Assembly (NCBI GenBank): GCA_046563655.1
Contig: CM102289.1
Coordinates: 3,410,001 to 3,474,000 of the forward strand
Direction of reading: 5' to 3'
Length of the DNA stretch: 64,000 nt
DNA from: Yuukianura sp. NJ FZ-2021
Taxonomy: Eukaryota
Positions 1 to 61,114 of the stretch are shown piece by piece (positions within the stretch are counted from its first letter, which is position 1; every line of letters starts with the position of its first letter). The notes beneath the pieces were generated by a model. That model was not told where the DNA came from and made no database searches. It saw only the letters and a list, made by a program, of their open reading frames with translations. Position numbers and translations under genes: made by a program.

Positions 1-1374
1 AACACTTCTCTGGTTAACCTAACCTGTAAAACTTGCAACATCAGGGACTAAGGTTAATGTAGGAAACCTAGCCAACTTGGATGTCTCTCTGCGTGATTTC
101 TCTAAAAAGCGAGGTTCCTTCTGGAGAAAAGTTAATTTGACACCTGCCAACTGAGTTCATATTGGAAATCTCTTAAGCGATACAAGTCTCTCCTGCTACT
201 AAATCTTTTTGTTTTTCACTCCAACCTGTATCGATTCCAAGAAAAAGCAGCATGTTTACCGTTTTTTACAAAACATATAAAAAACAATTTCAAGTGAAAT
301 ATTTTCCTGCCAAAGTATATTTTCTCCGAAATGTGAAAACCTGTCAGACTAATCATGGAATTAAACTTTGTTTGTCGGGTAAGTTCAGACAAGTCGCTTA
401 AAATATTAATAACTTTCAAAATCAACTTTCTCCGGAGGCTCCAACTTTTGAAATAAGGTTGATTCCGGTTTTAGCCTTTGAAGAATTTTTATTCCCTTAA
501 GAGACTTCTGGACCATGCTCCTCGTTTCGCCTGTAAGCAAAGTAATGCACCAATTTCTTTAAGAAAAATATTCGTAAGCAAACGTTGTGAGCAGCTCAAA
601 ATTTGTTCCGGTTCTAACAATTTATCTGGTTAGTAGAAAGAATTCTGAAAAAAAGAATATTGAATAATTAAAACAGAGCGCACGCTCCGCTCTCGCTTCT
701 TGGAGCATAACTTTTCCACTGTCTACTTCCGTGGCATTTCTCCAGAGAGTTCAAAAGCCCACTTTCACCACTTAAACAGCACAGCACAATTTTGTGTGCG
801 CACATTCATTACACAGAAGGCGCAGAGGAAGTGGAGTAGCTTTCACTGAAACCTGTCTCCTCTACGATAACATTTCATCCACATATGGAACCTAGAGGGC
901 TAAAAAGTCCAGAAAAAATGTAACAGAGGTCCTATTATTCAATTTCACAACAGGAAGTTTCCTTTTCCAGAACTCACTTGACTTTTTGGTTCCGTTGCCA
1001 AAAAAACGTAGGCGGACAACTCAAAAGACAAAATGGTGGAACAAGGAGGAAGTGTACGTGCTTTGATTACTGTTTCAGGAAAGATAGCTTGCACTTTTTG
1101 ACTTGCAAGGCTTGATGATCGAATCTTGAAATTTCGACTCTTGAAAGTTTGGACAATGAAAAACTGTTTCCTATTTGTCTTGGACAACTAAATTTGAGTT
1201 GTTTTTATCAAACAGGAAACTGTCAAATCTAAAGTTGCAACAGTTACACTTTTCAGAAAAAAAAAACAAGTCTCTTAAAAACCTTTGTTTTGAATTTCTT
1301 CTTTAAAAAACGAGTCTTATAAAAACCTTTGTTTTGAATTTCAACCAAAGCTTTACAAAATTTTTCAATTTTAG

Positions 1375-1419
1375 GATGAAAAGAACCAAATTCTTATAAC
1401 CAATACGTGGCTAACTTTG
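1375..1419 (+). CDS. nAChRalpha7: alpha7 alternative exon 3a (loop D), [15 protein letters not shown]
   Basis: 45 nt, ttttag|GAT...TTG|gtaagt, phase 0-0; classic nAChR exon 3 motif. Confidence 0.92.
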
Positions 1420-4400
1420 GTAAGTGCAATTTTTGCAAAAAAAAAATTGCTCCGAGTTTAAACGGAGTAAACTGTTAGTCAGATCCAGTAATCTGTGACT
1501 TGCAGATTTAAAATGTCAATGGAGCTAATTGTGTGCTGCTACTTAGTTGTAACTGTGAGCGCAATGTTGTTCTCTCGGCATACGCAATTGCTGCAACCAG
1601 GTCTGGTCTTGCATGTTAACTCGACCACATGTTTAAAAATAGACTGACTTAGGTTAGGTTTACATTAGGTTAGCCTAATCAACATTTTAAATTCGTTGAG
1701 AAAAAGGAAGGACGCGTTTTTTTGTGCCAATTTGTAAAGATCTTTCGATCGTTTTTAGTGTGTTTTTTTTTCAGAAAAGAGGAATCCTGCGATCCGTAAA
1801 TGTGTCTCCGCATGTATCTGCTTTCCCCTGTGCTTTCTCCATGATCATAAAAACTGTATGTGTGTAGCCACTGCCACACCAAAGGTCTCCAGTGGATTCT
1901 AACAAAACCTAACCTAAAGTTCACCTGACTACTACAATTCCTTCAACGACTGTCGATTTCTTTGGGGTTTAAAAGCTGAAAGCTTGGACAGTTAAGGCTT
2001 ATCCCCTTTAAACTTCCCTCTCTTCCTCCGTTTACTCTAGTGTACCACTACCATAAATTTCAATTGAACAAACAAAATGGATACCCTGGGAATTGTCCTT
2101 ACTTCTAAAACCTAAAGCCACCGTTAGGTTAGCCTAGGCTCTCCTTGTTAGGTTGAAAGAAACTTGCACTTTTCTCCTAAATCCCCGAGTTCTATCACCG
2201 CCCATCCCTGAAATTGATTCTTATTGACGTGGGCATTAAGACAGGAAACGACTGTCGTTCAAATGATCTTTGGAGCTTTGAGGGTTATTTCCGGCCGAAA
2301 CGCGCTGTGTTTTCCTCTGACAATTCTTTTTTTGGTCTACCTTTAACAGAGAGTTGTTTGTTTCGATCCCAGAAGTTAACAATAATGCTGACGGTTCATG
2401 ATGTTACAAACGACTCAGCGTATCTAACTGTGGTTCCTTGATGGTGCATTTATATCGATGTTAAGTTGATGAGATAGAACTTAGCAATTGATGTTGAGAT
2501 GAACACTGTTTAGTATACTACTTTACCTGTGTTTTCAATTGCAACTGTGATCTGATTGTTTGTGTCTTTGTCCCTTCTCTTTGTTTGCATGTGCTCACAT
2601 TGTATTTGCGGCAATATTTCTAAATGCAGGACGAGAAGAATCAAATTCTAGTCACTACTCTTTGGTTACGAATGGTGAGTCAATACCTTTCCTTATACGA
2701 CCTACTTTAACACTTCTTTCAAATCAAACCGCATTTTTCAATTTCATTTTCACTCAATCAGCCCTTGAACAACTTTCTTTACTTTTTTTTAAATCACTCT
2801 GCTTTGAAAACACAAAAGTCAATTCAATTTAATTTCAACAATGGAACTGCTGAGAGAAATGACGCAAACCAAGTAAGGTTTGGCAGACTAACGTAACCTA
2901 ACCTAGCAATTCTTTCAATCTCAATCAACGCTAACAAAAAAAATTCTCCAACGAATAGATGTGGTGACAATGGACTTTCTCCAATAACAATTCAAAGAAA
3001 CCGCACAATGTTGGCCCACGAGGCAATTAACTTTCTTAATCAATTTCTTGGCTTCTTCTATTCAATCTCAGCAGTTCCATTCAAAAGTGTCAATTTACGT
3101 TTACGTTTACGCCATACATAACGTTTACCGTGTGAAAATTTAACTTTTTGCATGTAACCTGCCAGCTTACAAAGTCATAAACCAGCCATTTCAATCAATC
3201 CATAAAATTTGCACCTTCAGTTCTTACTAAAAAACCTTGTCAAACTGGTACAGAACTGATGCGTGGTCTCGCCCAGTTTTTGTTCCTTACGCAGGAACTA
3301 CTGCGACGGGTAATTCAAATTGAATTAAAAGGTGTGTTGCGCATGAGTAGGTTGATGGTTCGAAATTTCCTGAAATTTGGTCTTTTGCTCCTTTGCTGTG
3401 TGCATAAATTCCATTTACTCTAACAATTTCACGGTGGATTGAACTGGAGCAGAGTCGAGGCGAGAGGTTTGGTGTGGAACCTGAAGATCCAGAATAGCAT
3501 GACTCCTCCACTTTCTCTTCAAGAAGTGTTGGTGACCAAGGATGAGACACAAAGGAGGGACATTTGACACGTTTTCAACTTCGGCTGTCACAAACCATAA
3601 CTTTCCAAAGGTTAACCTAAAAGCAAGAAAGCAGGGCGAAAGCATTCGTCTGCCGATGAGGGCAAGTTTGCTTAATAAAATGCCTTGGAGGAGCCAGAGA
3701 AACAGAAGAAAGTGGAGAAAGTGATATTCAATTGACTTGGTCTAGTCGTAATCAGTCTCCACTCATGCATGAAGCCATCAAAGGAAGCAACAGAAAACTC
3801 TCCATTGTTCACCACCACTTTTCCTGTATCTTCACTTTCTCAGTAGAAACGTCTAACTTTCTTTTAGAATCAAAAAGATTCAAGAACACTTCTGAAACTG
3901 AAGTTGTGCTACAATTCTGTATTTGGATGTGCATGACAAAGAAGTGCATGATTTGTATAGAAAACAATGGACGGGAAAAGTTCATGTCTCGCGGGAACTT
4001 TTGAATCGTGACGAGAACACGATTAAAATTGAAGTTGCATCTTTGCACGCAATGCATGTTGTTTGTTGTTCCATCGAACAAGAGGAGTGTTGTTGGAAAA
4101 GACGTGCATTTGAAGACTTGTGAATTGCTTTATTAGTTAATCGACTGCAAACTAAACAGTTTGTGGATATACAGAAATTAATGAAGGGAAGACATGCGAG
4201 AAATCTGGTGTAGGGAGGAACCTTTCTTTTTCGTATTATAAACCTCGTCAGGCAAACAAGCGAGGAAGTTGTACTATATTTTACAGTAGAAAAGTGAAAA
4301 GAGGGAACCTTTGTGTATTGTTTGAAAATATTTTGATACCCGAGCGCCACCAGACGAGTGGTTCTAGAGTTAAATGAGGCTTTCCTTCTGCTTCAAGCTT

Positions 4401-7400
4401 CAAGCTTTGTCTACTACTTGTCGCAGTGTTGCTTGTGGTGAAAGTAGACTTTCACTGCAACGCTTTCGTTGTGGCTTACTCAGTCAGGTACTGACTGTAT
4501 ACTAGTTTCTTTTGTGTTTACACTGCGCATGTGCCCTGTGCTACATAAAGTTTGCAGGACTTGCGCCTGCTGTAGCATCAGCTTGCTCTCGATCAGCCTT
4601 TCAGAGGCCCAGACAAAAGCTTCGCTTGACTGTTCTTAGAAATGTGCTTATAAGAAATTCAAACAAAGCCTCAAATGTAGTCGAGACGAGAGCATGCGGT
4701 GCTGGTAGCAGAGCCATCTCTGCCGCTTGAACTGAACCTTGCTACTCTCTTGGCTTGTTCTTCCACAAGGCTCTAGATTTCACCTCCTTGCTTTCACTTT
4801 GGCTTCAGCTTGACTCAATTTTTCATTAGACTCTACACACTCCTATGAATACATTCTTAAATTGTACTTCTATTCTAATGTGACAGGAGTGGAATGATTA
4901 TAATCTCCAATGGAAGCCAGAGGAGTATGGCAACATTTCCGACCTTCGCATTCCTCCACATCGAATATGGAAACCTGATGTTTTAATGTACAACAGGTAC
5001 AGAAACAAATATTAGTCCTTTTAGTTACATTTTTAGCCGAATTTTACACAATTGACTAAACTTGTAACTTTAAAATACTTGAACTTGTTAGTGCCGATGA
5101 ACAATTTGATGGTACGTATCAGACGAATGTCGTGGTGCGTAGCAACGGGAGCCTCACTTATATCCCTCCAGGAATATTTAAGAGTACGTGTAAAATCGAC
5201 ATCACTTGGTTCCCCTTCGACGAGCAAAAGTAAAATTTTCTCATTTCTCAATTTTTTAAATTCTACATTGTTAATTGTAAAGTCACGGTCGAGAGAAAGT
5301 TATTACAAGTGAAGCATGTACGGAGACTTTCGTTTTGAAAGTTTCAATTTACATTAAAAAACTGGAGTACATCCGAAAAATGAAAACTAAATTCAATTTA
5401 CATATTGCGTAATTCAAAATTGAGAGTAGTAACTTACTCTCGGCTTACACAAAAGTAAGCATATTAAATTTTAACCAAAAACCAAATTTCGTTTGTCTCT
5501 AAGATGCGAAATGAAGTTTGGCAGCTGGACATATGATGGTGGCCAGGTAAATCAATTAAATACTAAAAGTTTCAATACAGTAACTTATATACATTTTTTG
5601 GTTTCTTAAATTAATCATAATTTCGAAATTCTGGACGTGTTTTTCTAAAAAAAATTACATTGGATTACTAACTCATTTGTTTTAAATAAGCCCAATGTTA
5701 CTAAGATTTTAACCAAATTTAAATTTTTCAGCTGGACCTTCAGCTGCATTCCCAAGACGAATCAGGAGACATTAGCAGTTTTATACCAAACGGTGAATGG
5801 TCTCTCAAGGGTAAGGAAAATGACTTTCCTTTGTACTATTTACATCAAATATTTGACTTGGCATTATTATAACATTCAATAGAATTTCTAGGAATCGCTG
5901 CAATTGAGACTTTGAGTTAGAAAACTTAGGTCCACTATTTGACCTTGTGTTGACTCAAAAATTTATGATTCTTTTAAAAAAAGTCTTTGAAACCGTACTC
6001 CACTTCGGTGGGATTTGGACACTGGCGGGTAATTGGAAATCAGAGAAAATGAAGTTTATGTGTTACAAAGGGTTGTGTGGCCTTTGATGCCTTTTCTTTC
6101 CAATTTACGTCCCAAACCCTACTTTCTTCTTGTTTATATTTCTACTGTCTCCCAAACCCAGCTCTCCCGTTCCACTTGGATTATATTTCAGAGGAGGATC
6201 AAGGCGTAGGAAGAAACGGTTTGAAACATTGCGGATTTCCAGGAAAGCGTACGATGGGCCACGAATGCGGTCGACTCTTCTTTGGCACAATTTGGAGAAA
6301 CCTCCGGCACGTGTATGCGTGTATGCCAGTCTCTACTACTCTAGTAGTTATATGCCGCCACCCACGTTCCTTTCCCCGGTTAGGTTAGTTTAACCTTTCT
6401 CCCTGCTTTCTCTTTGCAGAGATCCCTCTAGACGCCCAGAGCACATGAATTTCATTTTGAGGACTTACATTATTTAGAAAGGAGTGTTGTTGCGTGTACA
6501 AAGTTTAGCCTTTTCAATTTGTTACCGCTGGACTCGTTTCCCTCGGAGTGGGTATTATGAGATGAACGAAGAAACTGCTTCCAGCTAACTGCCAACTGAC
6601 AAATCAACTTCAACTTTTCTTCTTAAGCTGCTTCCGACAACTTTCAACCTTGTATAGAATAGGAAACTGTTTTATAACAGGCACAGGAAGGCAGAAATGA
6701 GATTTTGTTTGCAGAAACCATTTCCGTTTGATCCTCAAAATTTGTTTTGGGGGGAAATTTTAGTTTCCTTTTTAATTTTGGTTGACATTGATTCCAGGTT
6801 TTACTTTTTTGTAGTATGGAATTTCTCGAAGAGGCTTTTAAAAGTGTGTAAAGGGCAGATAAAAGGTTAGATGGCGCTGCAATGCCAAAATGTAGAACTA
6901 GAAATACGAAGTGAAAGTACGCAGACTGCAGCGTTTCAGCTACAGAAACCTTAGGAAAGTGAGTCAGACTTTGTAAAATCGATATTTGTACTTGGACGTG
7001 AACCAGTTCATTGTACTCGGTCAACAGAAAGGCTTTCCCAACGTGAGTTTTTGGACCATTTCAAAAACAATACCTTCAACATAGGGTGAATAGCAATCAG
7101 AAATGTATATTTTTAGGCCACTCCTTCATTTCAGAATTCTCCAAAAACTTTTACTTTAATCTTCAACTACAATATCAAAGATTTATCTGATGTCCTTACA
7201 ATAGTTTTGAGCCGTGAAGAACGTGAGAGTAATCATTTCCTGTTATATGTTTAACTAAATAAGTTTCATTTTTTTTTGTCCTAACCTGTGTTGATGTTTG
7301 TTCTTTTATCCTAAACACACTTTGACTTTCGAATCATCTTTTAAATGTCATTTTGAAGAACAAGTTAAGTAGATGCTGAGTTTGACATGATCAAAACCAG

Positions 7401-10400
7401 CAGCACTTTCCCTAAATATGATCCGATCGAACAGCACTTTTCACTTTCTACTTTGACGACGCTTTTACTAAAACATTTTTTGAGTCCACCACCAGTTCAA
7501 CTCGAGTTTTTTGAATGACGTTTTGGCCTTTAAGTGGCAAAAGAAAAGGCTCTTAACATTTTCTCAGCCCACTCTGGATCAATGTTTTGAGTGGTTTTGA
7601 GCAGAAAAAGAGTTCCAAGGATTTATTGAATGTTATAAAAAAAAAAGACTGAAACGTGTTTTTGAGAAACTTTTTTTTATGATGGTGGCAACTAATAATT
7701 GAATTTTTGGATTTGTTTTTTGGTTCTTGTATTTTTGTAGGCGTGCCGGGGAAGAGAAACGCCGTGTTTTATGCTGTAAGCCCTTTTATTCCTTCGTAAC
7801 TTCAAAGTTTCCTTTTTCAATTTTTGAAAAAACCCGTGAGACTGATTGACACTTCTTTTTTGATTTTTGATGGTTTGTGATGCAGTGTTGTCCGGATCCA
7901 TACGTCGATATAACATTTGTGATTCACATACAAAGGCGAACGTTATATTATTTCTTCAATTTAATCGTTCCATGCGTCTTAATTGCCTCAATGGCCGTGC
8001 TTGGGTTTACACTGCCGCCAGATTCAGGAGAAAAATTATCTTTAGGTAACCATAACACTAACAAAACCAAACTTTTTTGACTCCATTTTGATTTTGACCA
8101 TTTTAGTTTTGACCCCCCAATTGACCTCTCCTTAATCCTCCAACCTGGCGGGGCTAACTCAGCGCGGAGTGCATGAACAAATTTGTGTGAAAGATTTTTT
8201 TTAAGAAAGCAGGAGACATTTTGAACATGGTTAAATTAAAATTTTGAAAACTTTTGGAAATTGTGTACTTCGGGAAACGGACGACAAAACTTTTAGAAAA
8301 AGTTGGGATTTAATCTACTTTTGTTAAAAAAATGCTCTGTTACACATTTACAGCTCACTGCATTTTGTGCATCTAGGTGTGAAGGGCGTGCGCAACGTCA
8401 AATATTACTCGTGTTGCCCAGAACCGTACGTGGATGCCATTTTTACGGTTCACGTTCAGCGCCGAACTCTATTCTATTTGGTCAATTTGATTGTCCCTGG
8501 AATCATGGTCTCCTCAATGACTCTCCTTGGATTTACCCTCCCGCATGAATGTGGAGAGAAGCTAACACTAGGTATAGGCGCCTAAAGTAACTAACTTTTG
8601 AGACAGGTTGAAATATCTAGGTCAAACTTAATAGTTTTAAACACTATGTGTCAGGTCTCAATTCAGACTTTTCAAAAAAGTTTCAAATTTAAAACAGTTT
8701 TGAAAAGTGTTTACGAGATTAACTCTCCAACATTGCTTCCACTCAAAACACCCAAAAAAGGAAAGTCCAAATTCAATTTCAGCTCTTGCTCACTCCATTA
8801 TGGCCACTTTTCTGCCTTCTTGAATTTCAGCCCACTGACAGGGCGCAGAGCGTTATTGAATCTTTTTTTTTCATGCCTCTGCATACTGTACAGTTTGTAG
8901 TGTGCTGCTCCAGTATTACGAAAACTCCCGCCCAAAGGAACTGGACCAGTTTTTAACCGAACCACGTAATCCGCCTCCCAGCATCTTTCACTATATGCAC
9001 CACTACTCTATACAAACAGCCAAACTGTTCCATGACTTTCATGAACGGCACGTTTCGGACAGAATCGTCATTAACGATACTTTCTAGACAGAATTCTCAT
9101 GGAGGTTCGTTATAAACGCTAAAGCACAACAAGGGAAGTACTTTATAAACAAAATCAAGATCTATCTTTGTGCACAAAATCCAAGGTTCCTATACCAACT
9201 AAATAGTTTTCCTTTAATAGGTTTGGCAATAAGTCCTGTTTACAAAAAATCTCGCCCCGAACCATTTTTTTTTGTCAAATCCATTTGTTTACATATAAAT
9301 TATTGCCATAGGAAGGCACAGTGAAGCAAGTTTTGCTAATTTTTTAACAAAATTTAAAAAGTTATAGTTATTGCGTAACCTGTTAAAGAAGAAACTATTT
9401 TCTTGTTTACCAACCTTGGACGGAATCTAATTCAGGAATTTTGCAAATCTCCCAAATAGAAGAGTTTTGTACTTCTTAGACCGCCGGACATCCGTCCATT
9501 GAGTCCATAACTTAATAGCTAGTTCTTAAGTGACCGTCCATGAGTGTCCGGCTTCCTTCCTAACTTATCCTCCGAGTTCAGAGGACTGAAGAACGGATCG
9601 ATTCCATTTACTTTCCCCACTTTCCCGTCTTCCGACTTACAGTGAAGGCCCGAGCACTATGGGAAAAGTGGCCGAACACGTTTCTTTGCATTTTCCTTCA
9701 CGAGAGAACGCTTTTCCACTTCAAGCGGAATCAGGCCCATTACACAGTGGCCCACGGCTTCAAAACTCCTCGAATCAACGGTCAACACGTAAAGGAGCAG
9801 GGTATAATATGTTACAATGCTCAATGTTAGGCTAATTGCATTTGTCACTTTTACTTAATTATAAGAAACAAACAATTATGGTTGTGAATGATAAGAGGAC
9901 AAAACGAAGGTTGCAAGGAGCAGTGAAAATTCAAAAAAATTCCAAAAACCTAAGTTTTGCCAATCATCAAATTTGAATTCACCTAACCTTTGAATTTCGA
10001 AAGAACAAAATACGTCTTCATTCTAGTTTTCTGAGTTCCTAGTTGCGGTGACAGTGTTTTTTTTTGGATGCGATGTTTGTATGTGGAGCGAAAGCACTTG
10101 TCCTTGGGCACTTAAAACATACTCATAATTTAGCAGGGTGGCTCGCTTGGAGAGACAATAGAGAAAGTGTTGATTTCTCTAAGTGCCCACCGACAGTATA
10201 ACCTAACCTTTAGGCCAGGTTTTCAACCTAATCTACAGCATTTCTACCATGTAACTGGTGGTATTGATCCTTAAGGTGCGACTTTGGTATGATCAGCTCC
10301 ATTCCTTTTCCTGTTCCTTCTGTTTTCTGTTTTGGTTGAATTCCCTCCGGGCCTAAAGCCCATTTTCTAATTTGCAGAGTGTGAACCATGTTGTTTACTA

Positions 10401-13400
10401 AAGTGGAACTTAATTTACTCCCATGTAGGTGTGACAATATTACTTAGTTTAACAGTGTTCTTAAACATGGTCGCGGAAACAATGCCAGCAACCTCAGACG
10501 CAGTGCCTTTACTAGGTAACAACACCATTCTCACACCTTCAGCCAGTTCGTTTTGTGTCCGGTGCCTTTGGATCTGTGATGTTTTACTTCATTTTAGTTC
10601 AGAAAGCTATATGGACCATTTTGTTTTTTCTTCTTTTTGCCTTAACAAATTATTTTCAAACGGAAAAAAATATTTTGAAAAACCTAATTTTAAAATGTTT
10701 TTTCTCCACAAACAAATAAGGCAAAGAGTTATGTGTAATGATGACTGTTTATTTTAGACTCAAAATCCTTTTTAGCGACACACGCTTAATCTGGTGTTGG
10801 ACGGTGACAAATTTATGAACACTTTTCGATTTTGAAATTTCATTTTTTCCTTACTTCTGTCTCTTCTCTCTCATATTTGAACTTTCTCTTGTCTTGTTTT
10901 TACTTATTCACTTCACGCTGAGAACTCCAAACTTTTTTTTAGAGTTCAGAAGCCGTATAGTTTTTTTCTTCTTTTGTAATGCACATTTTAGTCTAAATTT
11001 TTAACCGTCTTTTTGAGAGCCCACTTGACTTTCTCTTTCACTTTTTTTCTGTGTCGCTCTTCTGAAGTCTTTTCTCCACTTCACAGTTTATATCTCATTT
11101 CACATGAGTGATTTTTGAATGAAGACTTTGTGCGTCGACTGAAGCCAATTGAACATCCAAGGGCTCCTAACGTAGCCTTTGAATAAGGCTCAAGGACCCC
11201 GGGAAATAATTTAATCAAATTAAAGGCATTAGAGTGAAGCTAATCACAATTCAGCAGGTTCTCTATGCTTCCCTTCTTTCACTTTGTTCCCATTCATACA
11301 ATGTTGAGTACTAGAGCAACTCATGAGTCATTATTTGCCAAAAATTTGGAAAAAGCCGTATGAATTACCAAACAAAACTATGTATATAGCTAGTTTTAGT
11401 TCAATCTTGTGCTAAGTTTACATGTAACCTCGATGTTGACCGTTGACATTCCGCAGGAGACGCTTTTATCTCGCAAGCACACTTCAAGAAACTGAAAATA
11501 CTGAATTGAGATCTTCTCTGTCAGTTTGCAATCTGCCAAGGGAGAGGCAGAAGTCCATGCGGAATTTATTTGGCAAATCCTTCTGGAAAACAGAGTCTTA
11601 GCTTGTGTAATTCCTAATATTCTATTATTTTATATGCCAAAGTTTTCTTTCTCAATTTCCATTGCCAAAGTCGTGCCAAAAGAGATTCCAGGAGGAAAGA
11701 CTTTTGGCAATATCCCTCCTCCCCCTCTAACCCAGATCAAATATTGAGAAAATAAATTTTCATTTGAAAGGAATGGTATTCCTTTTTGCTCATAAATCTT
11801 GATCTCCCTGAAATGGAACAGAAGAAAAAGACACTTTTCCATCAGAATGAATATACACTGCAGGAGAAAGTTACCTTAAAAAAAGTTAAATCTTAAAAAA
11901 ATGTTCTAAAAAAACTTCCGAACTTGTCACCTTGGCAGACTGTGAACTCGACTTTTGAGAATTAGAATAAGTTATTTAAAATTTTTAAATTTCGATGTTA
12001 AATATTTCACTTTCACCGTAAACGGAACTCTTAAGTTTCATCCTGTACTTTTATCGTACACAATTTTATATTGTATATTGTAAATTAGGTGTGACAATAT
12101 TGCTGTCATTGACGGTATTCCATAACCTCGTGGCAGAAACGCTTCCTCAAGTCTCGGATGCTTTACCAGTTCTAGGTATAATTATTTACGTTGCACAAAA
12201 GTTATTAACAGTCAATTCAACACGCTCCCCACCCTGGCTTACCTCAACTCTTGTTCTAACAAGTTATAGCAGTCTCACCTATAAACTTTTACCCCCCACC
12301 CTAATTTTCACCCTAAGTCATTTTTTGGTATTTTACTGTAGACTTTCTTCAACCTTCACTATCAACTCACACTATCGCCTCTTTTGAAACTGATACGGTT
12401 TTTTCCAAAGACGATTTTTGGCAAATAATTTTGGTACCACTGTAACCCGCCGTAGGGCTCTGTGTAGTCCGCAACTGTAAGCAAACTTTACCAAACTGCT
12501 GCCTTCCTTTGGACATTTGGCAATATCAATTGCAAATTTGAATTCCAAATTTTGTGCAAAAAATTCCCAGTACAACTATTTGTACACCATCACTTTTGTA
12601 CTTTATCTACTGGGAGACACAGTTTTGAAGAGTAGAAGCGATTTGCAAGTCTCTAGAAAGCAATCAATCTACTCGACTCCATTTGGAGTACTGTAATAAA
12701 GTGTCTCATGTGAAATGGGATCGACATCTCAGCACAACTCACAAATTCCATTTACTTTCTTCTTTTTTCACTCACTTTTTTCATGATTCATAATTTTGAA
12801 ACCAAAGAGAAAGTTTTCAAATTTGTCATTTGTTGTGCATCCAGTGTCGTTGCATTTTTTGGCAGCATGTTTTTGTACACACAGTTTTTATACACAAATG
12901 TTGAACACTATTTGCTTTCACTTGCCAGGAAGAAGCAACTCAAATGCACCCTGGTTGTTTGTTTTTGACTGCCGAAGTGTAATGTTAAATTTAGTTTGCT
13001 CTGTACACCAAGCTTTGAATCTTATACGAAAGCCTGTTTTTGGCAATTTGTTTTGTTTTGTACCAGAGCATTTGATTCGAAAACGATTGGAGATCTGATT
13101 TGTAGTTCCGTTGACTAATGAAATTTGTTGCATCTTCCTCTGTTCAATTCTAGGTACATACTTCAATTGTATCATGTTCATGGTAGCCTCTTCAGTGGTC
13201 TCAACGATTTTAATCTTGAATTATCATCATCGGAACGCTGACACGCATGAGATGTCTCAATGGGTAAGCATCAAGGACTTTCTCCGCTTTTACTTCCCGC
13301 CCAAAAAATTTTCTCGACGTAATCCACAATGCGCGTTTAGAACTTGTATCCGAAGGCTTAACGTCGCATTTGTTCGCTTTGCCTAAATTGCTAAAGCCTC

Positions 13401-15675
13401 CATCATCATATTCTTGTCAAAGTTTAATGATTGACCACATTCTTAAAGCTTCCCGCCAAACAGTCATCTGCAATCAAGGTTCCTTGACAACGAAAAGTTA
13501 ATTTTCTTTAACAGGTTGGGGACTACCGCGTTTGTTGAAAAAAAAAATTAGTACAAATTTTGTACCAATCCAAAAAATTGGTACCAGTTCGTATGCAAAA
13601 TTTGAAAAAAAATTAACTTGTACCACAACTACGAGCCCCGAAATGAAAAGATACTTTTTTTTTTGCAAATCAAAAAAACACGAGGTATTACGCAACCTGT
13701 TAAAGAAAACCAAAATCAGCAAATCTTATCGGTAGGCGTTACTTTGTTCATGGGCTACTTGAGAAAACGAGGAAGTCATGCGCAGCATCACCCTTCGTTT
13801 AGCAAAAACCGAAACGCTATGCGCATCGTCGGGCAGTTGCTAATTGCTTTTAACGAACTGGAGTGGTAACAAAGACCACCAAATTATTGTACACTTTGCC
13901 AATCGCCATTAACGAACCATGATTTTAATGTTGAACTAAAGTAGTTTGCTCTCTTTTCTCTACTTTCCCCGCCCACAATATTTATTATTTTGGAATTTGT
14001 TGTTCCCGCCTAACCACAAGCGGGTTCTGTACAAGAGAGTTCTAAGGCGGGAGAGTAATGGAGGGAGACAGGCACTCTGCGGCTTCCCTTTCATTTCTTC
14101 CTAGAAGACAAAGTTTTTGGGTTGGTCTAATGGGATTTCCCTTTGTCTGTGTTCTCTCTCCATCCTTTAGGTAAGAATCGTATTTCTGCAATGGATGCCG
14201 TGGCTTCTTCGGATGAGTCGTCCGGGTGATAAAATTACGTTAAAGGCAATGGCTGCCACTGCCAAGATGAGAGATCAGATCCGAGAGCTCGAAATGAAAG
14301 AGAGATCTTCCAAAAGTCTGCTAGCCAACGTCCTTGGTAAGGTCAAAGGTCAATCTTTACTCTCTCCATCTACTCTAAACAATCTGAAATAGCTAAATAT
14401 CCTGCCCCTTGGCACACCAAACCCACCACTGACAGTTTCATATCTACAAATTTATGAATTTACGAAGCGGACAGGGCGATGTTTGGGACTCATAAATAAA
14501 TTGGGAACACATAAGGATTGAGTGGTCCAGAAAACCAGATATGGCTTTTTATTCAACCAATCGATTCACTAATACCCGCAAGTTCCTAATTTCAAAGTTA
14601 TGTTATTTTTGCAAATGCTTTTTTTTTAAATATATTTTATTTCACGGCTGCGACAGGCAACTACACATTTGTTTTTCATACATATTATACATATATGTAT
14701 ATTGTCTCAAGTCTTTTTTCGAAAGCGAAGTTTTCAATAAACTTAAAATAAGCTTTCTGAAAGCTTGTTTTGTTCCAAAAATGTTTACCTAGTATAAATC
14801 TAAGTCACGTTACTTTTGATTTAAAGCATTTCTCAGTGTTCGAGCTGCGATCACTTATAAAAAGATGAAACCAAAATGACAAGTTTAGCATCATAATAGA
14901 TCAATGTTGTATAAATTTCAGTGTTGAGAGTTTTTTTTTTCATTTGACTGAAAAGAAAAATCGAAAAAAAGTTGAAATTAACTGAAAATTTTATCTATCC
15001 TTGTTTCATTTTACTGGAACAAATTGAAAGAAAGTAGAAAGTAAAAGAAATTGAAATATTTCGTTGAAAAATTTCAGCGTATCAGTAAAATAAGTTAAAG
15101 ATGCTGAAAAGATTTATTTGACGTTACATGTATTTTTCATTTTCTTGGCATTGTTTTCATTTTTCACTGAAAAGTGAAATATTTCAAATCTAACGCTGTG
15201 ACAGATTCCCACATACGAAAAGAAAGTTTACTACACTGACATGAACTTTTCTTTTTTTTTTGTACTTCAGATATGGACGACGACTTTCGACCAGCGACAC
15301 TTCGATCCTCAGCTCTTCATTCTACTCCGGGATGGCGGATCGGTGGCTCACATGAAGACCCGATCGCCTCCACCGTGAGCCACCATCCGTGTCTCGGGGC
15401 CCACCGGGAACTGTCCCTCATCCTCAAGGAAATTCGCCTCATCACGGACAAGATCCGGAAGGACGACGAAGCAGCAGAGATCACGAGTGAATGGAAGTTT
15501 GCAGCCATGGTCGTGGACCGTCTCTGTCTCATCATCTTCACGCTCTTCACCATCATCGCCACGGTTGCCGTTCTCGCTAGTGCACCTCAGGCACGTCTCT
15601 CCACTTTGCCCCACTTCCTCCTTGAAAAGTTGTATCTGACTTTTTGTTTCTTTCCTCTAGGTATTTGTCCCTTGA
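1375..15675 (+). CDS. nAChRalpha7: nAChR alpha subunit, alpha7 type (5'-partial; exons 1-2 lie upstream of the window)
   Basis: Phase-consistent exons: [1375-1419 or 2630-2674], 4887-4996, 5092-5229, 5504-5546, 5732-5810, [7741-7775+7886-8045 or 8377-8571], [10429-10515 or 12089-12175], 13154-13263, 14171-14336, 15271-15590, 15661-15675. Encodes WKPDVLMYN (loop A), Cys-loop [21 protein letters not shown] (loop B), YxCC loop C, GEK+M2, [24 protein letters not shown] (alpha5/alpha7 type rather than alpha6 type) and M4 [16 protein letters not shown]. Confidence 0.93.
2350..2460 (+). pseudogene. possible decayed duplicate of alpha7 exon 2
   Basis: After ttaacag reads (E)SCLFRSQKL...[20 protein letters not shown] then ttaagt. 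Resembles alpha7-family exon 2 (PVANDS..LTV...QIIDV|gt) but has a stop, is shortened and has a dead donor. Confidence 0.35.
2630..2674 (+). CDS. nAChRalpha7: alpha7 alternative exon 3b (loop D), [15 protein letters not shown]
   Basis: 45 nt, tgcag|GAC...ATG|gtgagt, same length and phase as 3a. Confidence 0.9.
5288..5444. repeat. short degenerate inverted-repeat element in an alpha7 intron
   Basis: gtcgagagaaagttatt (5288-5304) versus agtaacttactctcggc (5428-5444), 14/17 complementary. Confidence 0.4.
7741..8045 (+). CDS. nAChRalpha7: alpha7 alternative exon 7a (loop C + M1), split into 35-nt and 160-nt exons
   Basis: 7741-7775 [12 protein letters not shown], intron gtaagc...tgcag 7776-7885, 7886-8045 [11 protein letters not shown]...[12 protein letters not shown]; total 195 nt. 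Confidence 0.9.
8377..8571 (+). CDS. nAChRalpha7: alpha7 alternative exon 7b (loop C + M1), uninterrupted
   Basis: 195 nt, atctag|GT...CTAG|gtatag, phase 1-1, open: [66 protein letters not shown]. Confidence 0.88.
9182..9418. mobile_element. MITE, same family
   Basis: Both ends closely match the 51949 copy; TSD degenerate. Confidence 0.8.
9643..9801 (+). pseudogene. possible degenerate third copy of exon 7
   Basis: Pyrimidine tract + ttacag, 159 nt, phase 1-1, open frame VKAR...[11 protein letters not shown]...[16 protein letters not shown]|gtataa echoing exon 7b motifs VK, IF.H.RTLF, GF..P...G; lacks CC and a hydrophobic M1. Confidence 0.3.
10429..10515 (+). CDS. nAChRalpha7: alpha7 alternative exon 8a (M2), [30 protein letters not shown]
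   Basis: 87 nt, tgtag|GT...CTAG|gtaaca, phase 1-1. Confidence 0.92.
12089..12175 (+). CDS. nAChRalpha7: alpha7 alternative exon 8b (M2), [30 protein letters not shown]
   Basis: 87 nt, attag|GT...CTAG|gtataa, same length and phase as 8a. Confidence 0.9.
13475..13728. mobile_element. MITE, related subfamily
   Basis: caaggttccttgacaacgaaaag...; internal ttggtaccagttcgtatg shared with the 49393 and 54301 copies. Confidence 0.75.
15591..15660 (+). other. GC-AG intron before the terminal 4-codon exon of alpha7
   Basis: CAG|gcacgt donor, ctgac branch-like site, pyrimidine tract, ctctag acceptor. Splicing gives SAPQVFVP*, matching the short alpha7-family C-terminus. Confidence 0.75.
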
Positions 15676-18600
15676 TTTGAACTTCGCTTAACGAAACAAA
15701 GGAATCCAAACAGAAAAGAAGACAAGACAAATCAAACCAAATTCGATAAGAGCAGCATGACACACTTGAACAATCCAAAAAGTCTCTCTCTGCTTTCCAA
15801 TCAGCCCAAACTCAAAGTGTCAACACCAAACTCCTGCCGCTACAATTTATCTCAGTCCTACCTGTCTCTCACACTTCCTCGCATGAATCACCCCACCAAC
15901 AATTCAAGTCAGCACAACCCGATTTAAATGTTAATTTGGACCCACCGTCGCCCTCTTTTGCTCTTCGACGTTTCGTCTTCCTGGGAGAGACGCCAAAAAT
16001 CCTTGGAGCTCCAGTGGACCCAATGATTCAGAAAGTAAAGAGGACCAAGGGAAAACGGAAAAAGTGTCCTGGATAGCAGTGTAAATTTTCTGTCAAGACG
16101 TCGAATCGGACAGCAGAGAGTGACTTTGGGGAAAAGTCAAATAGAAGAGTTCAGGATCGAGCAAGAACATGCTAGAACGACATCCATCCATCGACCTCTA
16201 TTTCTCTACTTTCTCCTCTGAAATCCAATTCATGTCTCCAGAAAAAAGCCGGATCCATCTGAAGTCAGATTCACACTTCACTTTTAGTTCAACGACGCCG
16301 TTCCTAGAGTGGTCGTCGGAGGAGACAATTTTCTCCTAATCTTCGAACTCCTACACAGCGAAGCACCAACTTTCTTGAGAAGAAGGACAAAGAATGGATA
16401 GGTCCCAATTTCAGCTGACTTCCTCTGCTCCCTTAAAAATGCAACGGAGTTACACTTGGCGAATACTCAAGAAAAAGTAGGGAAAGTACGGAACTTGCCG
16501 AGAATTGCCAAAAAGAAAGCAGCATCCAGCTCAATATTGTACTTTCTCCACAGAAGCATGAGACACCGAGAGGAGAAAGCAGAAAAGAAAATGCCTTTCC
16601 TTCAACGTAATTTTCCCTTCGTGACTATACATGTACAACACAGAATTTGAAAGTGATGCAGCGCTCCGCCAAAGTTGTTGAAACCAAAAAAAAATTCAAA
16701 CATGACCACAAGCCTTTCTCTCAAAAAGTTAAGTTTGTGGAGAAATGCTGATGACTTTGAAGGCTTAGTTAACTTATGCAAAGAAAAAATGCTCAATTCA
16801 CACTCCATTTTGAAAAGACAGGATTTGCCTTTCAATTTCGTTGGGAAGAAAAGATTTGACACGAGTCCGGAAATAGTCTTTGCGATGACACGGGTGGATC
16901 GTGTGTGCTTCAGAGAAAGTCTTCCCCGTTTTGCCTCCTTCCAAAAATCCTGCTCAGATCCAATCGGCCAAGAGCATTCTTCATCGCTACCGTATTTTCT
17001 GTTCACACTGAAACCTAACATAACCTTTGCAGTTGACAGTAGAAAACAGTCTTTTGACTCCATTATTCAGGGCGGAAGAAGAACCACATTGCAAAAGAAG
17101 GCTTAACGCTTCATCTTTCGATTGTATTCCACGGGATCACTCGCCTCTGCGTCTTATCTTCTCTACACCACTACTTTCTTTGTCAAATTAAATGGCAACC
17201 TAAACAAAATGAAACAACTTTCACCACTTTCTTCACAGCGCTCACCGATTCTTTCAAGAAACTTCAAAGTGACAAACACTCCAAAAGAATTTTCACTTAA
17301 TCCAACCGTGATCTATCTCCAGTGCTACTCTCGACCGTTCCGAAAGCCTTAGTTTTAGGTTAGGCGTTTTGTCGGATCCTACTTTAATCAATAATGAAGT
17401 CATTGTGAAGAAGGTTGGAAGCTGCCAGAGCCAGAGAAGCCAAAGCTACATCAATTTTACTTTCCTTTCTTCTCCAGCCCTTAAGTATGGATGAAGCGTT
17501 CAATTTGTTCTCACGAAAATGGCAAAGGAAGAAGACTATCAAAGGCCCTTCCTACTGCAGAATTCAAGTCCCTGGAAATCTATTTTTCTGACTTTAGTTT
17601 TTTTCCTGCTCTTTTCTCTCTATCCTTTTCATCTCTTTTCGTCAAACAATGGGAGCTCATTGACATCATGAGAAGAATATGTTAGTCGTCTACGACTGGA
17701 ACTATACAGTTTTATGGTAGTTCATGAAATCCCAAATTCCCTTTGACTTTAGCCACCACCTTCCATCATCACAGTTGTTCAGGGATTCTTCTCGCCTTCG
17801 AGACATATAAATTTCCACGAGAGTGTAGCAATCTTTAATTCATTAGAAATCCATCCAATTTCGAAGTCTGTTTATTTGGACAAGATTCGTTTCGCTCCTA
17901 TTGTTTGGTTCTGAAAGTTTAAACAAAATCAAAGAAACGCTCGTCGTCTCCAAAGTTTTTTTTAGTTTTAAATTTCCCTTTGTCTTTGTTTTACTTTCCA
18001 AAGTGCTCAAGAAACGTAGAAAAATTGAAATTAAACCGTTTCTTCTCCCTCCAGCGTCTTTTTGATCAAGAAGAAGAGTTCAAAGGAAAAGTCAACATCG
18101 AAGTGATTTCTTCGCTCAGTAGTCGTCAACATCTCAATTTCCGTTTGCCACAAATGAAAACTCGGAGTCAGCAGAGGATCATAATCGTTGAAAAAATGGT
18201 GCGCGTTCCAGTTTGCAAGATTTGGATTGGACTTTCTTCGCACCCAAAAGGAAAGGCTTTCTCCTCCTCCTGCCAAGTTCGTCGTCTTATGAATAAAATA
18301 TGGCCGAATAGCACAAAAAACCTTTGTGTTTTGTGACAAGGGCGCTGCTGCGACCGAAGACTACTCTGTCAAATTGGGCAGTTGAGTCCAATGGACCGTG
18401 ACACGCCGCTTACATCATCTTCTGAGCCATGGTCACTGTTTATGTTTTGTGTGATGAATTTCCTACAGCTTCAACTTAAACTAACAGTTACCGGCGTCGT
18501 CGTTTGGTTTATTTATTGGCTCTGCTCAGTTCTGGTCGCTTCCAAAAGTGTCACTTTGTTCAGTTGATTTATGGACTAACGTAGCCCTGTAAATCCTACG

Positions 18601-43700: not shown

Positions 43701-46700
43701 AAGTTAGATTGTATCTATGTAAACCTTACCAAACCTCGGTAGAGCCTAACTTGTGACAACTGAATACCGTATGTTCGGCTGCCAACTTTAAAAACTTTTT
43801 TTCCCTCCTTTCCCTCCCACCCCCAATTCCGAGATTTGCCAAGCGGCAGCTACGCTCCGCAAGACTACTGGCACTTTTCGAGCTCTGTCGCCAAATTCGA
43901 CTTTTCTAACCTAACCTAAAGTAAATTCACTTCACACCAATGTAATAATTAACCCAACATAATTAATTAACGTTTAAATTAACCTAACCTAGTTAATTAG
44001 CGTAATACCCTATCCTAAAATAAATTTAATTCTAAATTATTATGAATTGACCTAAAATTAGAACAAACTAACCTTTTTTGAACTAGTTTTGAACTTTTTT
44101 CAAAATTTTGAACTTTTCCCAAAATTTTGAACTTTTTTCAAAATTTTGAACTTTTCCCAAAATTTTGAACTTTTTTCAAAATTTTGAACTTTTCCCAAAA
44201 TTTTGAACTTTTTTCAAAATTTTGAACTTTTTTCAAAATTTTGAACTTTTCCCAAAATTTTGAACTTTTTCGGTTTTAAACTTTTTTTTTTCAAAATTTT
44301 GAAAAAAGTTCAAAATTTTGGGAAAAGTTCAAAATTTTGGGAAAAGTTCAAAATTTTGAAAAAAGTTCAAAATTTTGGGAAAAGTTCAAAATTTTGAAAA
44401 AAGTTCAAAACTAGTTCAAAAAAGGTTAGTTTGTTCTAATTTTAGGTCAATTCATAATAATTTAGAATTAAATTTATTTTAGGATAGGGTATTACGCTAA
44501 TTAACTAGGTTAGGTTAATTTAAACGTTAATTAATTATGTTGGGTTAATTATTACATTGGTGTGAAGTGAATTTACTTTAGGTTATTTGAGAAAAGTCGA
44601 ATTTGGCGACAGAGCTCGAAAAGTGCCAGTAGTCTTGCGGAGCGTAGCTGCCGCTTGGCAAATCTCGGAATTGGGGGTGGGAGGGGAAGGAGGGAAAAAA
44701 AGTTTTTAAAGTTGGCAGCCGAACATACGGTAGCAGGGAATGTCATTGAAGTGAGTTTCAGTATTGATAAACTCCTTCAAGATCCCGCCTGTTCCACGTT
44801 GAGTGAAAGTCATTTGAAGGAATGATTTATGAAGTTCAGCTTGCCTCGTGGAGAAATCAGTGAAAGTGATGGAGTCCTTTGGCCCAATTTCCAAAAAGTT
44901 TTATGCAGGTCCATGCTCATGCTCTGTATTTTGTGTCTCTCCTTTGAATTCCAGGTCGCTGTTCTGAGGATGAGGAGAAACTAGTTCGTGATCTATTTCG
45001 TGGTTACAATAAATTGATACGACCCGTTCAGAACATGACGGAGAAAGTCCATGTCAAGTTTGGACTCGCCTTTGTACAGCTCATCAACGTGGTAAGGCCT
45101 TGCGTGCTGGAATTTTTAATTTGGAAACTTATTTGGTGTAATTGGTTCCGTGTCAGTCCGCATCTTCACAGTCGTTTAACAAAACACGCACCCTATAAAC
45201 CACACAAAACAATTAAACTTAAATTAACCCACGATTAAATAAACAATTAAACCAAATTTCAAAGGGTTTTGCTTTGTACTTTGTTTAACTCCTCCAATTT
45301 TCTAGATGAGAAAATTCTCCTGCAGTTTTACTCACTCGCATACTTGAATTTCGTGAAACAGCGAGCAATATTTGCAGTAAAAAATGTAATTACCTAAAAT
45401 TTTTTTTTAAATTTTCGTGTAATAATTTTTCAAAATGCATTGTACTTCTGACCCAACACAGGATTTCGTAGAATATCACCAAAAAAATGAAAAAGCGTTA
45501 AAAAAAATCCCGCCAGCAAGATATGTGACAAAATTTCAAACTTTCCAATAAAACATTAATATCGAAAACCTTTTGGCGTAGAGCGGGACGTGGTTTGTGA
45601 TGATGAGAACTTCAACGGTGCAGGGTTAGCTCATGATGTTGTGGTACGAGAACGAATTCTTTTGAAATTCCCGTATTCCCCAACATCCTTTGCAAAGAAT
45701 AGATCCGAATGAAAGTCATTTATTTCTATTTTTGGACAAACATATACTAAGCTCCGGTCCAAAATCGAATTTCACCACAAAAGAGTGCCCCAAAGTCCAA
45801 AGTCGATGTGGTTTCTGCAAAGTTTTGTAAACTTTCGGAACTTGATGAACTTTCGAAATCCATAGTATTGAATGTATCGCTCAATTGAGTCAAATTAGAA
45901 TTAAAAAAATAACTTATTTACTTGAAAAATTAATAAAACTAGGCAACAGTCCATTAACTCTTTTAAAATAATATTTCTGTTTCCCAAATATTTTGGACAA
46001 TAAATTAATATAAATTGGTTCACATTTTGATAAATTTTTTAGAAAAAAAAAGAGTTCATTCGCAAGCCAATTGCTGTGTTTGTTCATTTCAGAATGAGAA
46101 GAATCAAATTATGAAGTCCAATGTTTGGCTCCGTTTGGTAAGTTTCTTTTGTTCAACGTTTAGCTTTGAATCCAAAAACTACCTTAAGGTAGTTGTATCT
46201 CCGTCTGTCGTAACTCTGTCACTCAGTCCGTCACTGTGGTTAGTTACCATAAACCTGTCAACTGTGAAGTACGCAACGACTTAGCCGGATTTTCCCGCTT
46301 TCCTAAATTTCCCGCACAGTCTAGAAAGCATGACTTCTACGACGCTCTGTCTCATAAAGTAATTTCAACTTGACTATAAATTAGAACCGGGAGTCTTGAG
46401 GCGATTAGGTGAACTCCTCTGTGACCTTCCATCTTGGCACCAATGTTATGCTAGGTATAATGCTAGGACGAAGGGCGTTGGAGTGGGTCTAAGTAGCTAC
46501 ATCAGTGTCTTCCATGACTGACACTTCCGTCACCCGTACTGCCATTCGAACCGACTGTTTTCGTGCTGGCATGAGACACCTTCAGATCAGACACCAACTT
46601 TTGTCCAATTTGTATCACGTCAAGCGAAAAGCGGGAACTGTGTCCACTCCGGAACTGACACGAGAGGCAGGAAAAGACATCGTTCCAGTTCAAAATGGAC

Positions 46701-59498: not shown

Positions 59499-61114
59499 TC
59501 ATCGAACAGACTCGTATCCTCCTGGTAAGCCATTCTTCGTCATCACTATTTGCCAGAGTTGATACTTTCTGGACCTAAAAGCTCCAATTGACAGAGACAA
59601 ATAGAAGTACCACATTCGGAAGAATGTTTGATCGTATTTAGCAGACAACTGAGGCCAAGCTTTGACAAATTTTTCCCGCCAAGCTGTAAGTGTCTTTGAA
59701 TAGTCATGTCCAAAGTTGTGCCAATCTTCAACAATGAACAGACCGTTGCATTTCTCCAAGATTTCAGTGTGGAACGGCAAAATTCCGTTCGGAAAAATGT
59801 ATTGATGAAACCATGGTTCAATTAACGGAATACCAGGGTGACTCACGCCTAAAAATTAAAGGAGAAAAATTTCAAGGTTCAAAAAATACACAAGAATTGA
59901 AACAAAGAAAAACTTGTCATAAATGCTCATACCGATTGTGTGAAGAAGAAAAATTCCATCGTCTTTTAAACATTTAGAAGCCAGTTTGAAGAAGTTTCGA
60001 AAATTGCTTGTTCCAACGTGCTCGAACATGCCGACGGAAACAATCCGATCAAATTTTTGATCCAAATCTCTGTAGTCCTTAAGAACAATTTGAACTGGAA
60101 GTCCTGCGCAGGATTTTCGTGCCAAGTCCGCCTGCTCTGTTGAAATCGTGCATCCCACGACTGCTACTTTATAATTTGCCGCCAAATACTTGCAGAGGCT
60201 TCCCCATCCACATCCAATGTCTAATACTGTCATTCCTGGTTCCAGTTTGAGCTTGTCTCCAATCAACTTCATTTTGTGCTCCTGCGCTTCATCCAAGTTC
60301 TGCGCTCGTTTCCAGTAACCACAACTGTAGTTCATCGATTTATCCAAAAATGCTTCAAATAAGTCATTTCCTAGAAACAAGAAAAAATGTTTTAAAAAAA
60401 CTATTGAGTTCATCAGGAAATGCAAGCAGAACAATATATTGGTCACTGTGATCATTTCACACTTTTCTCATTTCCTACTTTCAAAACCTGTCTGCAAATT
60501 GCATTTCGCGCTTTGTGCAATTTGAAAACACCGCCCCCTTCTTTCATCACGATGCACAATATACAACACCACTCTAACCTACAGATGTACTGACTAATCA
60601 GTGTTTTGTTTTAAAAAACTGGTCCTACCCGCTTTTAAATTTTAAAATTTTATAAAATGTTACAAAAAAAAATTGAATCCACTTTAGTACCTTTGTTGTA
60701 ATGATCCTTAGCTACTTGCCAAGCTCGAACTCTAGTTTGCAAATTGCAGATTTTGAAGAGCAAGAAGTTGACAGTTCTATTAATAAAGTGCATGTACTTT
60801 TTGTACAGTTCAGTTTTGAAAATGACGTTGAGCAGTTCGTCCAATTGGTCGCACTCCCACAAACCTTCCATGTACGTTTCTCCTAGTCCCAACGAAGCAT
60901 TATTTGCAAGTCTCACGTAAAATTCCCGCTCATTTTGCTTATCGATTTGAATGTCGAACGGACGGTCGCCATTGATTTGGATTCCATGAGACACAAACTG
61001 ATGTCGGACGTATGCTTTTGCAAATGGGTAGAAACAAATGATGAGGAACTTTTCAATCTGCTTGTACACGGTAACCAATAAGACGATGATTCTGTAGAAG
61101 AGGCTTCCACACAT
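59499..61114 (-). CDS. cfa: cyclopropane-fatty-acyl-phospholipid synthase, bacterial Cfa type, 403 aa, two introns
   Basis: Exons 61114-60691, 60370-59933, 59848-59499 (1212 nt, both introns phase 1, GT-AG). Motifs SLGLGETYMEGLWEC, HY..GNDLF, YSCGYW, VLDIGCGWG (SAM binding), FDRIVSVGMFEHVG, FLLHTIG, YIFPNG, EDWHNFGHDY, GAFRSR..QLWQ align with E. coli Cfa as recalled. Confidence 0.93.

Follow-up and report, generated by a model that had tools for sequence, protein, structure and literature searches.

Three tandem pairs of putatively alternative exons in an alpha7-type nicotinic acetylcholine receptor gene of the springtail Yuukianura

Introduction

Subunits of the alpha5/6/7 group of nicotinic acetylcholine receptors form homomeric channels, and alpha6 is the target of spinosad. 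To our knowledge, descriptions of isoform diversity in this group concern almost exclusively exons 3 and 8 of alpha6. Here, we analyzed an alpha7-type receptor gene in a stretch of 64,000 nucleotides (nt) from the springtail Yuukianura sp. NJ FZ-2021 (GCA_046563655.1, contig CM102289.1, positions 3,410,001 to 3,474,000 of the forward strand), hereafter called the window. The gene contains three tandem pairs of homologous coding exons, designated 3a/3b, 7a/7b, and 8a/8b. It is probably the springtail ortholog of insect alpha7, with the members of each pair used one at a time.

In alpha6, exons 3 (3a/3b) and 8 (8a/8b/8c) are mutually exclusive, according to the portions of PMC6393475 and PMC1919356 covered here. 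The window gene resembles insect alpha6 in having tandem in-frame copies at the same two positions, with the same sizes of 45 and 87 nt, in the loop D region and in the pore helix M2. It differs from insect alpha6 in belonging to the alpha7 group and in possessing a third cluster at exon 7, which encodes loop C and the helix M1. Such a cluster goes unmentioned in the alpha6 papers covered here, and the term "exon 7" occurs 0 times in the alpha6 exon paper (PMC1919356). The window gene shares its orthogroup, and the beta1 linkage of insect alpha7, with Pame-alpha7 of Periplaneta and alpha7 of Leptinotarsa. Unlike the described insect alpha7 genes, two exon-7 copies and 2 to 4 exon-8 copies are found here and in termite-like contigs. 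The cockroach alpha7 cloning paper (PMC7221154) has 0 occurrences of "splic", "isoform", and "exon".

A duplicated and alternatively used exon, also called "alternative exon 7", has been reported in Bombyx mori alpha8 (PMC2045683). As far as the covered portion of that paper goes, it lies in another subunit, at TM2-TM3, is young (86% identical copies, lepidopteran), and is not homologous to the pair in the window. Dscam1 and 14-3-3zeta also have tandem homologous exons whose exclusivity goes beyond nonsense-mediated decay (NMD) or short introns. Unlike these systems, the window gene has clusters of only two exons, and a docking/selector element was not found here.

Results and Discussion

Gene model and the three exon pairs

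The gene model was built on the plus strand from stop-to-stop frames and inspection of splice sites (Table 1). Exons 1-2 are located 5' of the window. Each modelled exon has its AG acceptor and GT donor, and the canonical splice sites that the initial annotation had assigned to the cassettes were recovered. The annotation had also described three homologous pairs with lengths of 45/45, 195/195, and 87/87 nt. These coordinates and lengths are right, but 7a is not a single exon. An in-frame TGA at 7868-7870 interrupts 7a when it is read in one piece; it is composed of two pieces whose coding total is still 195 nt. The members of each pair are tandem and homologous, equal in length and phase, and provided with their own splice sites, which for 7a holds only for the sum of its pieces.

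The copies share 60-77% protein identity within pairs and are separated by spacers of 1210, 331, and 1573 nt in pairs 3, 7, and 8, respectively. Chance is excluded as the source of the pairs because of this level of identity and because pairs 7 and 8 are kept in other species. A relaxed tblastn search (E up to 50) of positions 1-16000 recovered each cassette exactly twice; a third copy of any of them, including the two extra exon-8 variants of the termite type, was not found in this range. With each of the eight cassette combinations, a single reading frame stays open from exon 3 up to the stop and encodes 460 residues. The earlier count of up to 8 isoforms is thus borne out as a coding possibility, not as an observation. 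The C-terminal end is uncertain; the match to the Folsomia protein ends after ...SAPQ, at window position 15590.

The region 8046-8108, just 3' of the 7a donor, contains a branch-point-like CTAAC, a long pyrimidine-rich run, and TTTTAG. It resembles a complete 3' splice site, merely 62 nt downstream of that donor.

Table 1. Coordinates of the alpha7-type gene, its conserved intron blocks, and the beta1 gene in the window
Feature	Position	Strand	Length (nt)	Remarks
Exon 3a, loop D region	1375-1419	+	45	AG/GT, open frame
Exon 3b, loop D region	2630-2674	+	45	AG/GT
Exon 4, constitutive	4887-4996	+		gene model and tblastn
Exon 5, constitutive, part of Cys-loop	5092-5229	+		gene model and tblastn
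Exon 6, constitutive, part of Cys-loop	5504-5546	+		gene model and tblastn
Exon 6', constitutive	5732-5810	+		gene model and tblastn
Intron block upstream of 7a	7608-7647	+		conserved with L002
Exon 7a piece 1, strand before loop C	7741-7775	+	35	sequence read
Intron inside 7a	7776-7885	+	110	phase 0, GT..AG
Exon 7a piece 2, CC of loop C, M1, M1-M2 loop	7886-8045	+	160	
Exon 7b, one piece	8377-8571	+	195	AG/GT
Intron blocks downstream of 7b	8792-8833, 8841-8863, 8948-8972	+		conserved with L002
Exon 8a, M2, alpha7-type	10429-10515	+	87	AG/GT
Intron blocks between 8a and 8b	10768-10817, 11022-11038, 11069-11125	+		conserved with L002
Further intron blocks between 8a and 8b	11209-11231, 11328-11364, 11729-11768	+		conserved with L002
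Exon 8b, M2, alpha6-like	12089-12175	+	87	AG/GT
Exon 9	13154-13263	+		gene model
Exon 10	14171-14336	+		gene model
Exon 11	15271 to at least 15590	+		gene model
beta1 nicotinic receptor gene	46093-54811	+		tblastn

Subunit assignment

The translation contains a Cys-loop of the form C-x13-C in exons 5/6 and the loop C motif YACC in 7a and YSCC in 7b. These features agree with the initial identification of an alpha-type nicotinic receptor gene. Against PF02932, the Pfam model of the neurotransmitter-gated channel transmembrane region (cut-off 28.1), 7a piece 2 scores 28.6 bits. Exon 7b on its own covers only 28 residues of this model and for that reason stays below the cut-off, at 20.1 bits. The closest named relative of exon 11 is Folsomia candida "alpha-7 isoform X1" (89% amino acid identity). 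The next named matches share at most 66% identity over the same 79% of the query, and some rows from Schistocerca, Anabrus, and Anopheles share 73-81% identity across only about half of the query.

A maximum-likelihood tree was built from 33 proteins after the columns of exons 3, 7, and 8 had been taken out; Drosophila alpha5/6/7 were outside this set. The window protein is paired with Folsomia X1 (Shimodaira-Hasegawa-like approximate likelihood ratio test, SH-aLRT, 100). The springtail pair joins an insect clade that holds the author-named alpha7 proteins of Periplaneta and Leptinotarsa, with a support of 85. The pancrustacean alpha7 clade comprises 19 rows (SH-aLRT 91). An alpha6-type group containing Locusta alpha6 and the product of a second, alpha6-type gene of Folsomia candida (P0051) stands apart with a support of 81. 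With moderate tree support, the window gene appears to belong to the alpha7 group and not to the alpha6 group, and the alpha7-type assignment of the initial annotation is retained once the alternative-exon columns are removed.

Protein segments encoded by the alternative exons

The 3a and 3b exons encode a 15-residue stretch of the loop D region. Exon 3a is identical at 13 of 15 residues to exon 3 of Folsomia alpha-7 isoform X3, and 3b at 10 of 15 to exon 3 of Folsomia isoform X1. The exon-7 segment gives a gap-free alignment with residues 177-241 in chains of human alpha7 (e.g., 7koo_A), and all 65 residues of 7b are covered by this alignment (E 3e-17). It spans the strand before loop C, then M1, and ends with GEK at the mouth of M2. 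Both 7a and 7b have kept YxCC and the following PY, RR(R)T before M1, the M1 proline, and GEK. They differ in the flanks of loop C, at about half of the M1 positions, and in the M1-M2 loop, which reads PPDSGEK in 7a and PHECGEK in 7b. The PHECGEK of 7b is conserved from springtails to termites.

The 8a exon, encoding M2, is identical to Folsomia alpha-7 at 30 of 30 residues, and 8b is identical to exon 8 of the mayfly isoform P0257 at 29 of 30. The 8b exon shares 27 of 30 residues with the M2 exon of Locusta alpha6, compared to 23 of 30 with 8a. Because 8b is nearer to the alpha6 M2 than to 8a, these identities suggest that the exon-8 duplication may predate the split of the alpha6 and alpha7 genes.

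Conservation of and selection on the exon copies

Metagenome contigs were scanned with 7b, and 73 loci were returned. Five of them are springtail-like (L001-L004 and L043), with 7b sharing 80-94% protein identity with that of the window. L001-L004 contain 7a and 7b in tandem, and L043 contains 7b only. L002 also contains 8a and 8b, and L003 contains 8a, 8b, and exons 9 and 10. Both copies are kept in relatives for pairs 7 and 8, as seen in these contigs; for pair 3 this is seen only through Folsomia and Orchesella proteins. The b copies in the window and in L001-L004 have intact splice sites and are free of stops and frame shifts.

The proportions of changed nonsynonymous (pN) and silent (pS) sites were obtained as Nei-Gojobori counts between the window and L001-L004, using 64 codons for exon 7. 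In 7b, 64-96% of the silent sites are changed, with pN of 0.05-0.12. In 7a, 24-48% of the silent sites are changed, with pN of 0.007-0.07; for the second piece of 7a, pN is 0-0.07. In the comparison with L003, pS and pN are 0.80 and 0.115 in 7b and 0.85 and 0 in 8b. The corresponding values are 0.47 and 0.068 in 7a, 0.32 and 0.039 in 8a, 0.41 and 0.044 in exon 9, and 0.62 and 0.075 in exon 10. Saturated silent sites together with few amino-acid changes identify the b copies as translated sequence under strong purifying selection, so that 7b and 8b are judged to be held at the protein level. In this per-cassette check, pN is far below pS in both.

Silent divergence from L003 is far lower in 7a, 8a, and exons 9-10 (pS 0.32-0.62) than in 7b and 8b (0.80-0.85), and 8a of the window and L002 differ at 0 of 21 silent sites. 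The low silent divergence points to a constraint at the level of RNA or codons that may act on exons of the major isoform only. In our reading, this extra constraint on the a copies and constitutive exons probably marks the major isoform, through selection on codons or splicing signals, and the b copies would belong to rarer isoforms.

Age and distribution of the exon-7 pair

Protein searches with 7b returned matches of ~160-185 bits. These scores are too high for a single 65-residue match, and the matched proteins have 7a-type and 7b-type segments in tandem. Such tandem proteins were found in Polyneoptera (Zootermopsis, Cryptotermes, Periplaneta, Schistocerca, Anabrus, and Timema), in bugs and lice (Nilaparvata, Rhodnius, and Polyplax), and in Malacostraca (Macrobrachium, Panulirus, Homarus, Armadillidium, and Trinorchestia). 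In a Blattella protein (P0027), a 7a-type segment is kept only at its end, ahead of a complete 7b-type segment. Among nine termite-like contigs with 7b, eight also have 7a, 149 nt upstream. Termite-like alpha7 genes also have tandem exon-8 copies, four in L005 (11916-19119), L010, and L012, and three in L007.

To classify the copies, a tree of 56 exon-7 peptides (66 columns, many forks unresolved) was used. It replaced motif-based A/B labels, which were rejected since "B" had been assigned to single-exon genes of chelicerates and myriapods as well. Hexapod 7b forms a single clade (support 100/98), whose 12 rows comprise 5 springtail-like and 7 insect sequences. A 7a-type clade of 23 rows (98/94) takes in Holometabola, mayfly, Artemia, and Eurytemora. 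The B exons of decapods fall into a separate clade (95/85) that does not connect with hexapod 7b. Based on the single hexapod 7b clade, the exon-7 duplication is estimated to be at least as old as the springtail-insect split.

According to the initial annotation, a duplicated exon 7 is not known in this family. The duplication is not confined to this lineage and is present in public gene models of many arthropods; what stands is that it is undescribed in the literature found. No description of an alpha7 exon 7a/7b pair, or of alternative exons 3/8 in alpha7, was found in the literature, supplements not being covered, and the cockroach cys-loop family paper (10.1002/ps.6245) could contain one for the exon-7 pair. 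On sequence grounds, the exon-7 pair is real and ancient, and it is apparently undescribed, though visible in gene models of many species.

Introns have been inserted into exon-7 copies of springtail-like genes: 7776-7885 in 7a of the window, L002:364-476 and 612-694 in 7a, and L043:2274-2377 in 7b. The intron inside 7a is common to the window and L002 and is absent in L001, L003, and L004, and L002 has an additional one before ...DSGEKLSL. The window intron is accordingly young by this distribution, and recent gain inside exon-7 copies is indicated for some springtail-like lineages.

Use of the exon copies in gene models of relatives

A total of 67 proteins from eight hexapod clusters were read, with the short fragments P0236 and P0284 left out. 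Two Folsomia isoforms, X1 and X3, both of 519 amino acids (aa), differ only in having a 3b-like or a 3a-like exon. Two types of exon 3 and three of exon 8 are combined in the mayfly isoforms of 499 aa, and a fourth exon-8 type occurs in an isoform of 498 aa; the exon-8 type of one 499-aa isoform is 29/30 identical to 8b of the window. In decapods, a B-only isoform of Panulirus (P0180) has the same length as the A-only isoform (P0179). B-only models with the B exon at the same position as in A-only models are also found in Macrobrachium (P0196, P0199, and P0211) and Scylla (P0099). An 8b-type M2 is present in 5/5 decapod B-only models. The gene models of relatives thus support the use of one copy at a time for exons 3 and 8, and for exon 7 only in decapods. 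The cloned cockroach alpha7 (P0146) contains 7a- and 8a-type exons.

Several observations weigh against one-at-a-time use of the three pairs in the window gene. Exon 7b occurs, alone or in tandem, in 0 of the 66 exon-7-covering hexapod proteins from the eight clusters, and 8/8 Folsomia proteins use 7a and 8a. Hexapod models that hold 7b have it only joined behind 7a (P0004-P0006, P0008, P0011, P0015, and P0017), and these tandem models are either artefacts or a sign that both exons can be co-included. The decapod isoforms may reflect an independent duplication, because decapod B lies outside the hexapod 7b clade. The conservation of 3b concerns 15 residues and one named relative. As to the tandem models, exon-8 copies are also joined in P0237, P0271, and P0283, which suggests a habit of the gene-model pipeline.

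Choice between the copies

We favor the interpretation that the three pairs would replace, one copy at a time, the loop D stretch, the segment comprising loop C, M1, and the M1-M2 loop, and M2. One-at-a-time use is inferred because a subunit with two or no M1/M2 segments cannot have the receptor membrane topology. The a copies would give the major alpha7-type isoform. The b copies would give minor isoforms with an altered loop-C flank, M1, and M1-M2 loop (PHECGEK) and an alpha6-like M2.

NMD cannot enforce exclusivity because all cassettes are multiples of 3, and steric hindrance is excluded in this gene because of the spacers of 331-1573 nt. The initial annotation had drawn the same conclusion. 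The 7a-7b spacer is not too short to be spliced, being 331 nt here and 149-877 nt in related loci. Exclusivity would most likely result from competition between splice sites steered by trans-acting factors. Three contig proteins (P0001, P0002, and P0026) have an in-frame spacer of just 6 or 13 codons between the 7a-type and 7b-type segments. In these species, the exons are probably too close to be spliced together, and steric hindrance may operate.

Competing long-range RNA pairings of the docking/selector kind, as in Dscam1 or 14-3-3zeta, could also enforce exclusivity and possibly couple 7b to 8b. The window and L002 are the only pair whose introns can be aligned. Against a background identity of 44-57%, this alignment shows about a dozen conserved blocks, each 17-57 nt long (Table 1). 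Positions 8453-8466 of 7b can form a duplex of 12-14 bp with 10790-10803, in the intron that follows 8a. L002 has this duplex at the corresponding site although its 7b differs by 4 silent changes, with energies of -22.1 kcal/mol in the window and -19.6 kcal/mol in L002, matched by 3/500 and 24/500 shuffles, respectively. However, this duplex was picked from 50 exon-block comparisons, and the 7b site is merely the ~4th to 6th best partner of the block along the pre-mRNA in either species, making it a weak lead only. RNAduplex energies between conserved blocks are mostly like those of shuffles, with the best pair reached by 2/30 of them, and a block-by-block complement screen gave only short AT/GU-rich runs, none of which is common to the window and L002. 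The conserved blocks were not found in L001, L003, and L004, and an upstream-intron alignment of five springtail-like sequences revealed no shared element beyond that of the window and L002. The termite-like loci, with a mutual identity of 98-100%, are too alike for covariation. The RNA pairing proposed by the initial annotation therefore did not gain a convincing docking/selector pair from these screens; as the mechanism of exclusivity it is possible, unsupported, and in our view doubtful.

A complement between 8a and 8841-8863 was also considered and rejected (-8.1 kcal/mol, reached by 160/500 shuffles). The block 10786-10812 in the 8a-8b intron resembles the first bases of exon 8, reading T-V-T-N-L-stop in one frame, and occupies the place of an additional exon-8 copy in termite-like contigs. 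It may be what is left of a third copy of exon 8.

A further interpretation is that the hexapod alpha7 locus holds two coordinated alternative cores, an alpha7-type core of 7a and 8a and an alpha6-like core of 7b and 8b, which would have existed before the springtail-insect split and been lost in Holometabola. The two cores would be chosen in concert, and base pairing between 7b and the intron that follows 8a might be the means. Hints of this arrangement are the 8b-type M2 of the decapod B-only models, the alpha6-like character of 8b, and the recurrence of the duplex between 7b and the intron. We regard such coordination as unlikely.

It is less likely still that 7b is no true alternative and is either included behind 7a or skipped, giving a non-channel regulator product or splicing noise. 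Every hexapod model with 7b has 7a in front, and alpha6 transcripts with both copies of exon 3 have been reported in the covered portions of PMC2045683 and PMC13578988. However, a decoy would need no intact loop-C and M1 residues and would not show pN of 0.05-0.12 beside saturated silent sites over 64 codons. It is also at odds with the conservation of 7b from springtails to insects. The joined exon-8 copies in P0237, P0271, and P0283 belong to exons that the alpha6 papers call mutually exclusive, again suggesting a pipeline habit. The view that the b copies are decaying duplicates out of use, to which the saturation of silent sites in the b copies but not in the a copies or constitutive exons might be attributed, is close to refuted by their open frames, intact splice sites, and pN far below pS, and by the near identity of 8b to an exon in mayfly isoform models (29/30).

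Neighboring genes

The beta1 gene lies ~30 kb downstream of the alpha7-type gene on the same strand. Its product, a non-alpha subunit, shares 97% amino acid identity with the "beta 1 subunit" of Allacma fusca. With the majority of the numerous proteins called beta-like 1 or beta1, the identity is 88-94%. Clustering of alpha7 and beta1 has been described in six insects (PMC12309072, as far as covered), so the arrangement noticed by the initial annotation corresponds to that of insect alpha7.

Just behind beta1, a third and highly divergent nicotinic-receptor-like gene is located at 58045-58828 on the plus strand. Its product shares 27-30% amino acid identity with the alpha7 gene product and scores 48.5 bits against PF02932. 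On the minus strand, open frames at 59499-61168 score 205 and 74 bits against Pfam CMAS, the cyclopropane-fatty-acyl synthase family. Bacteria are the best-known source of this family, and the origin of such a gene in a springtail may be worth attention.

Significance

The alpha7 gene of springtails and non-holometabolous insects has the two clusters of putatively alternative exons known from alpha6 plus a third, on which selection has acted from a time before the origin of insects. Provided that the isoforms are expressed, subunits from one gene would differ in the principal face of the agonist site, in a helix facing lipids and modulators, and in the pore. Expression would also bear on the history of the alpha6/alpha7 duplication and on how exclusivity is achieved in two-exon clusters with long introns. 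It would likewise matter for the interpretation of receptor pharmacology in springtails and other non-target soil arthropods.

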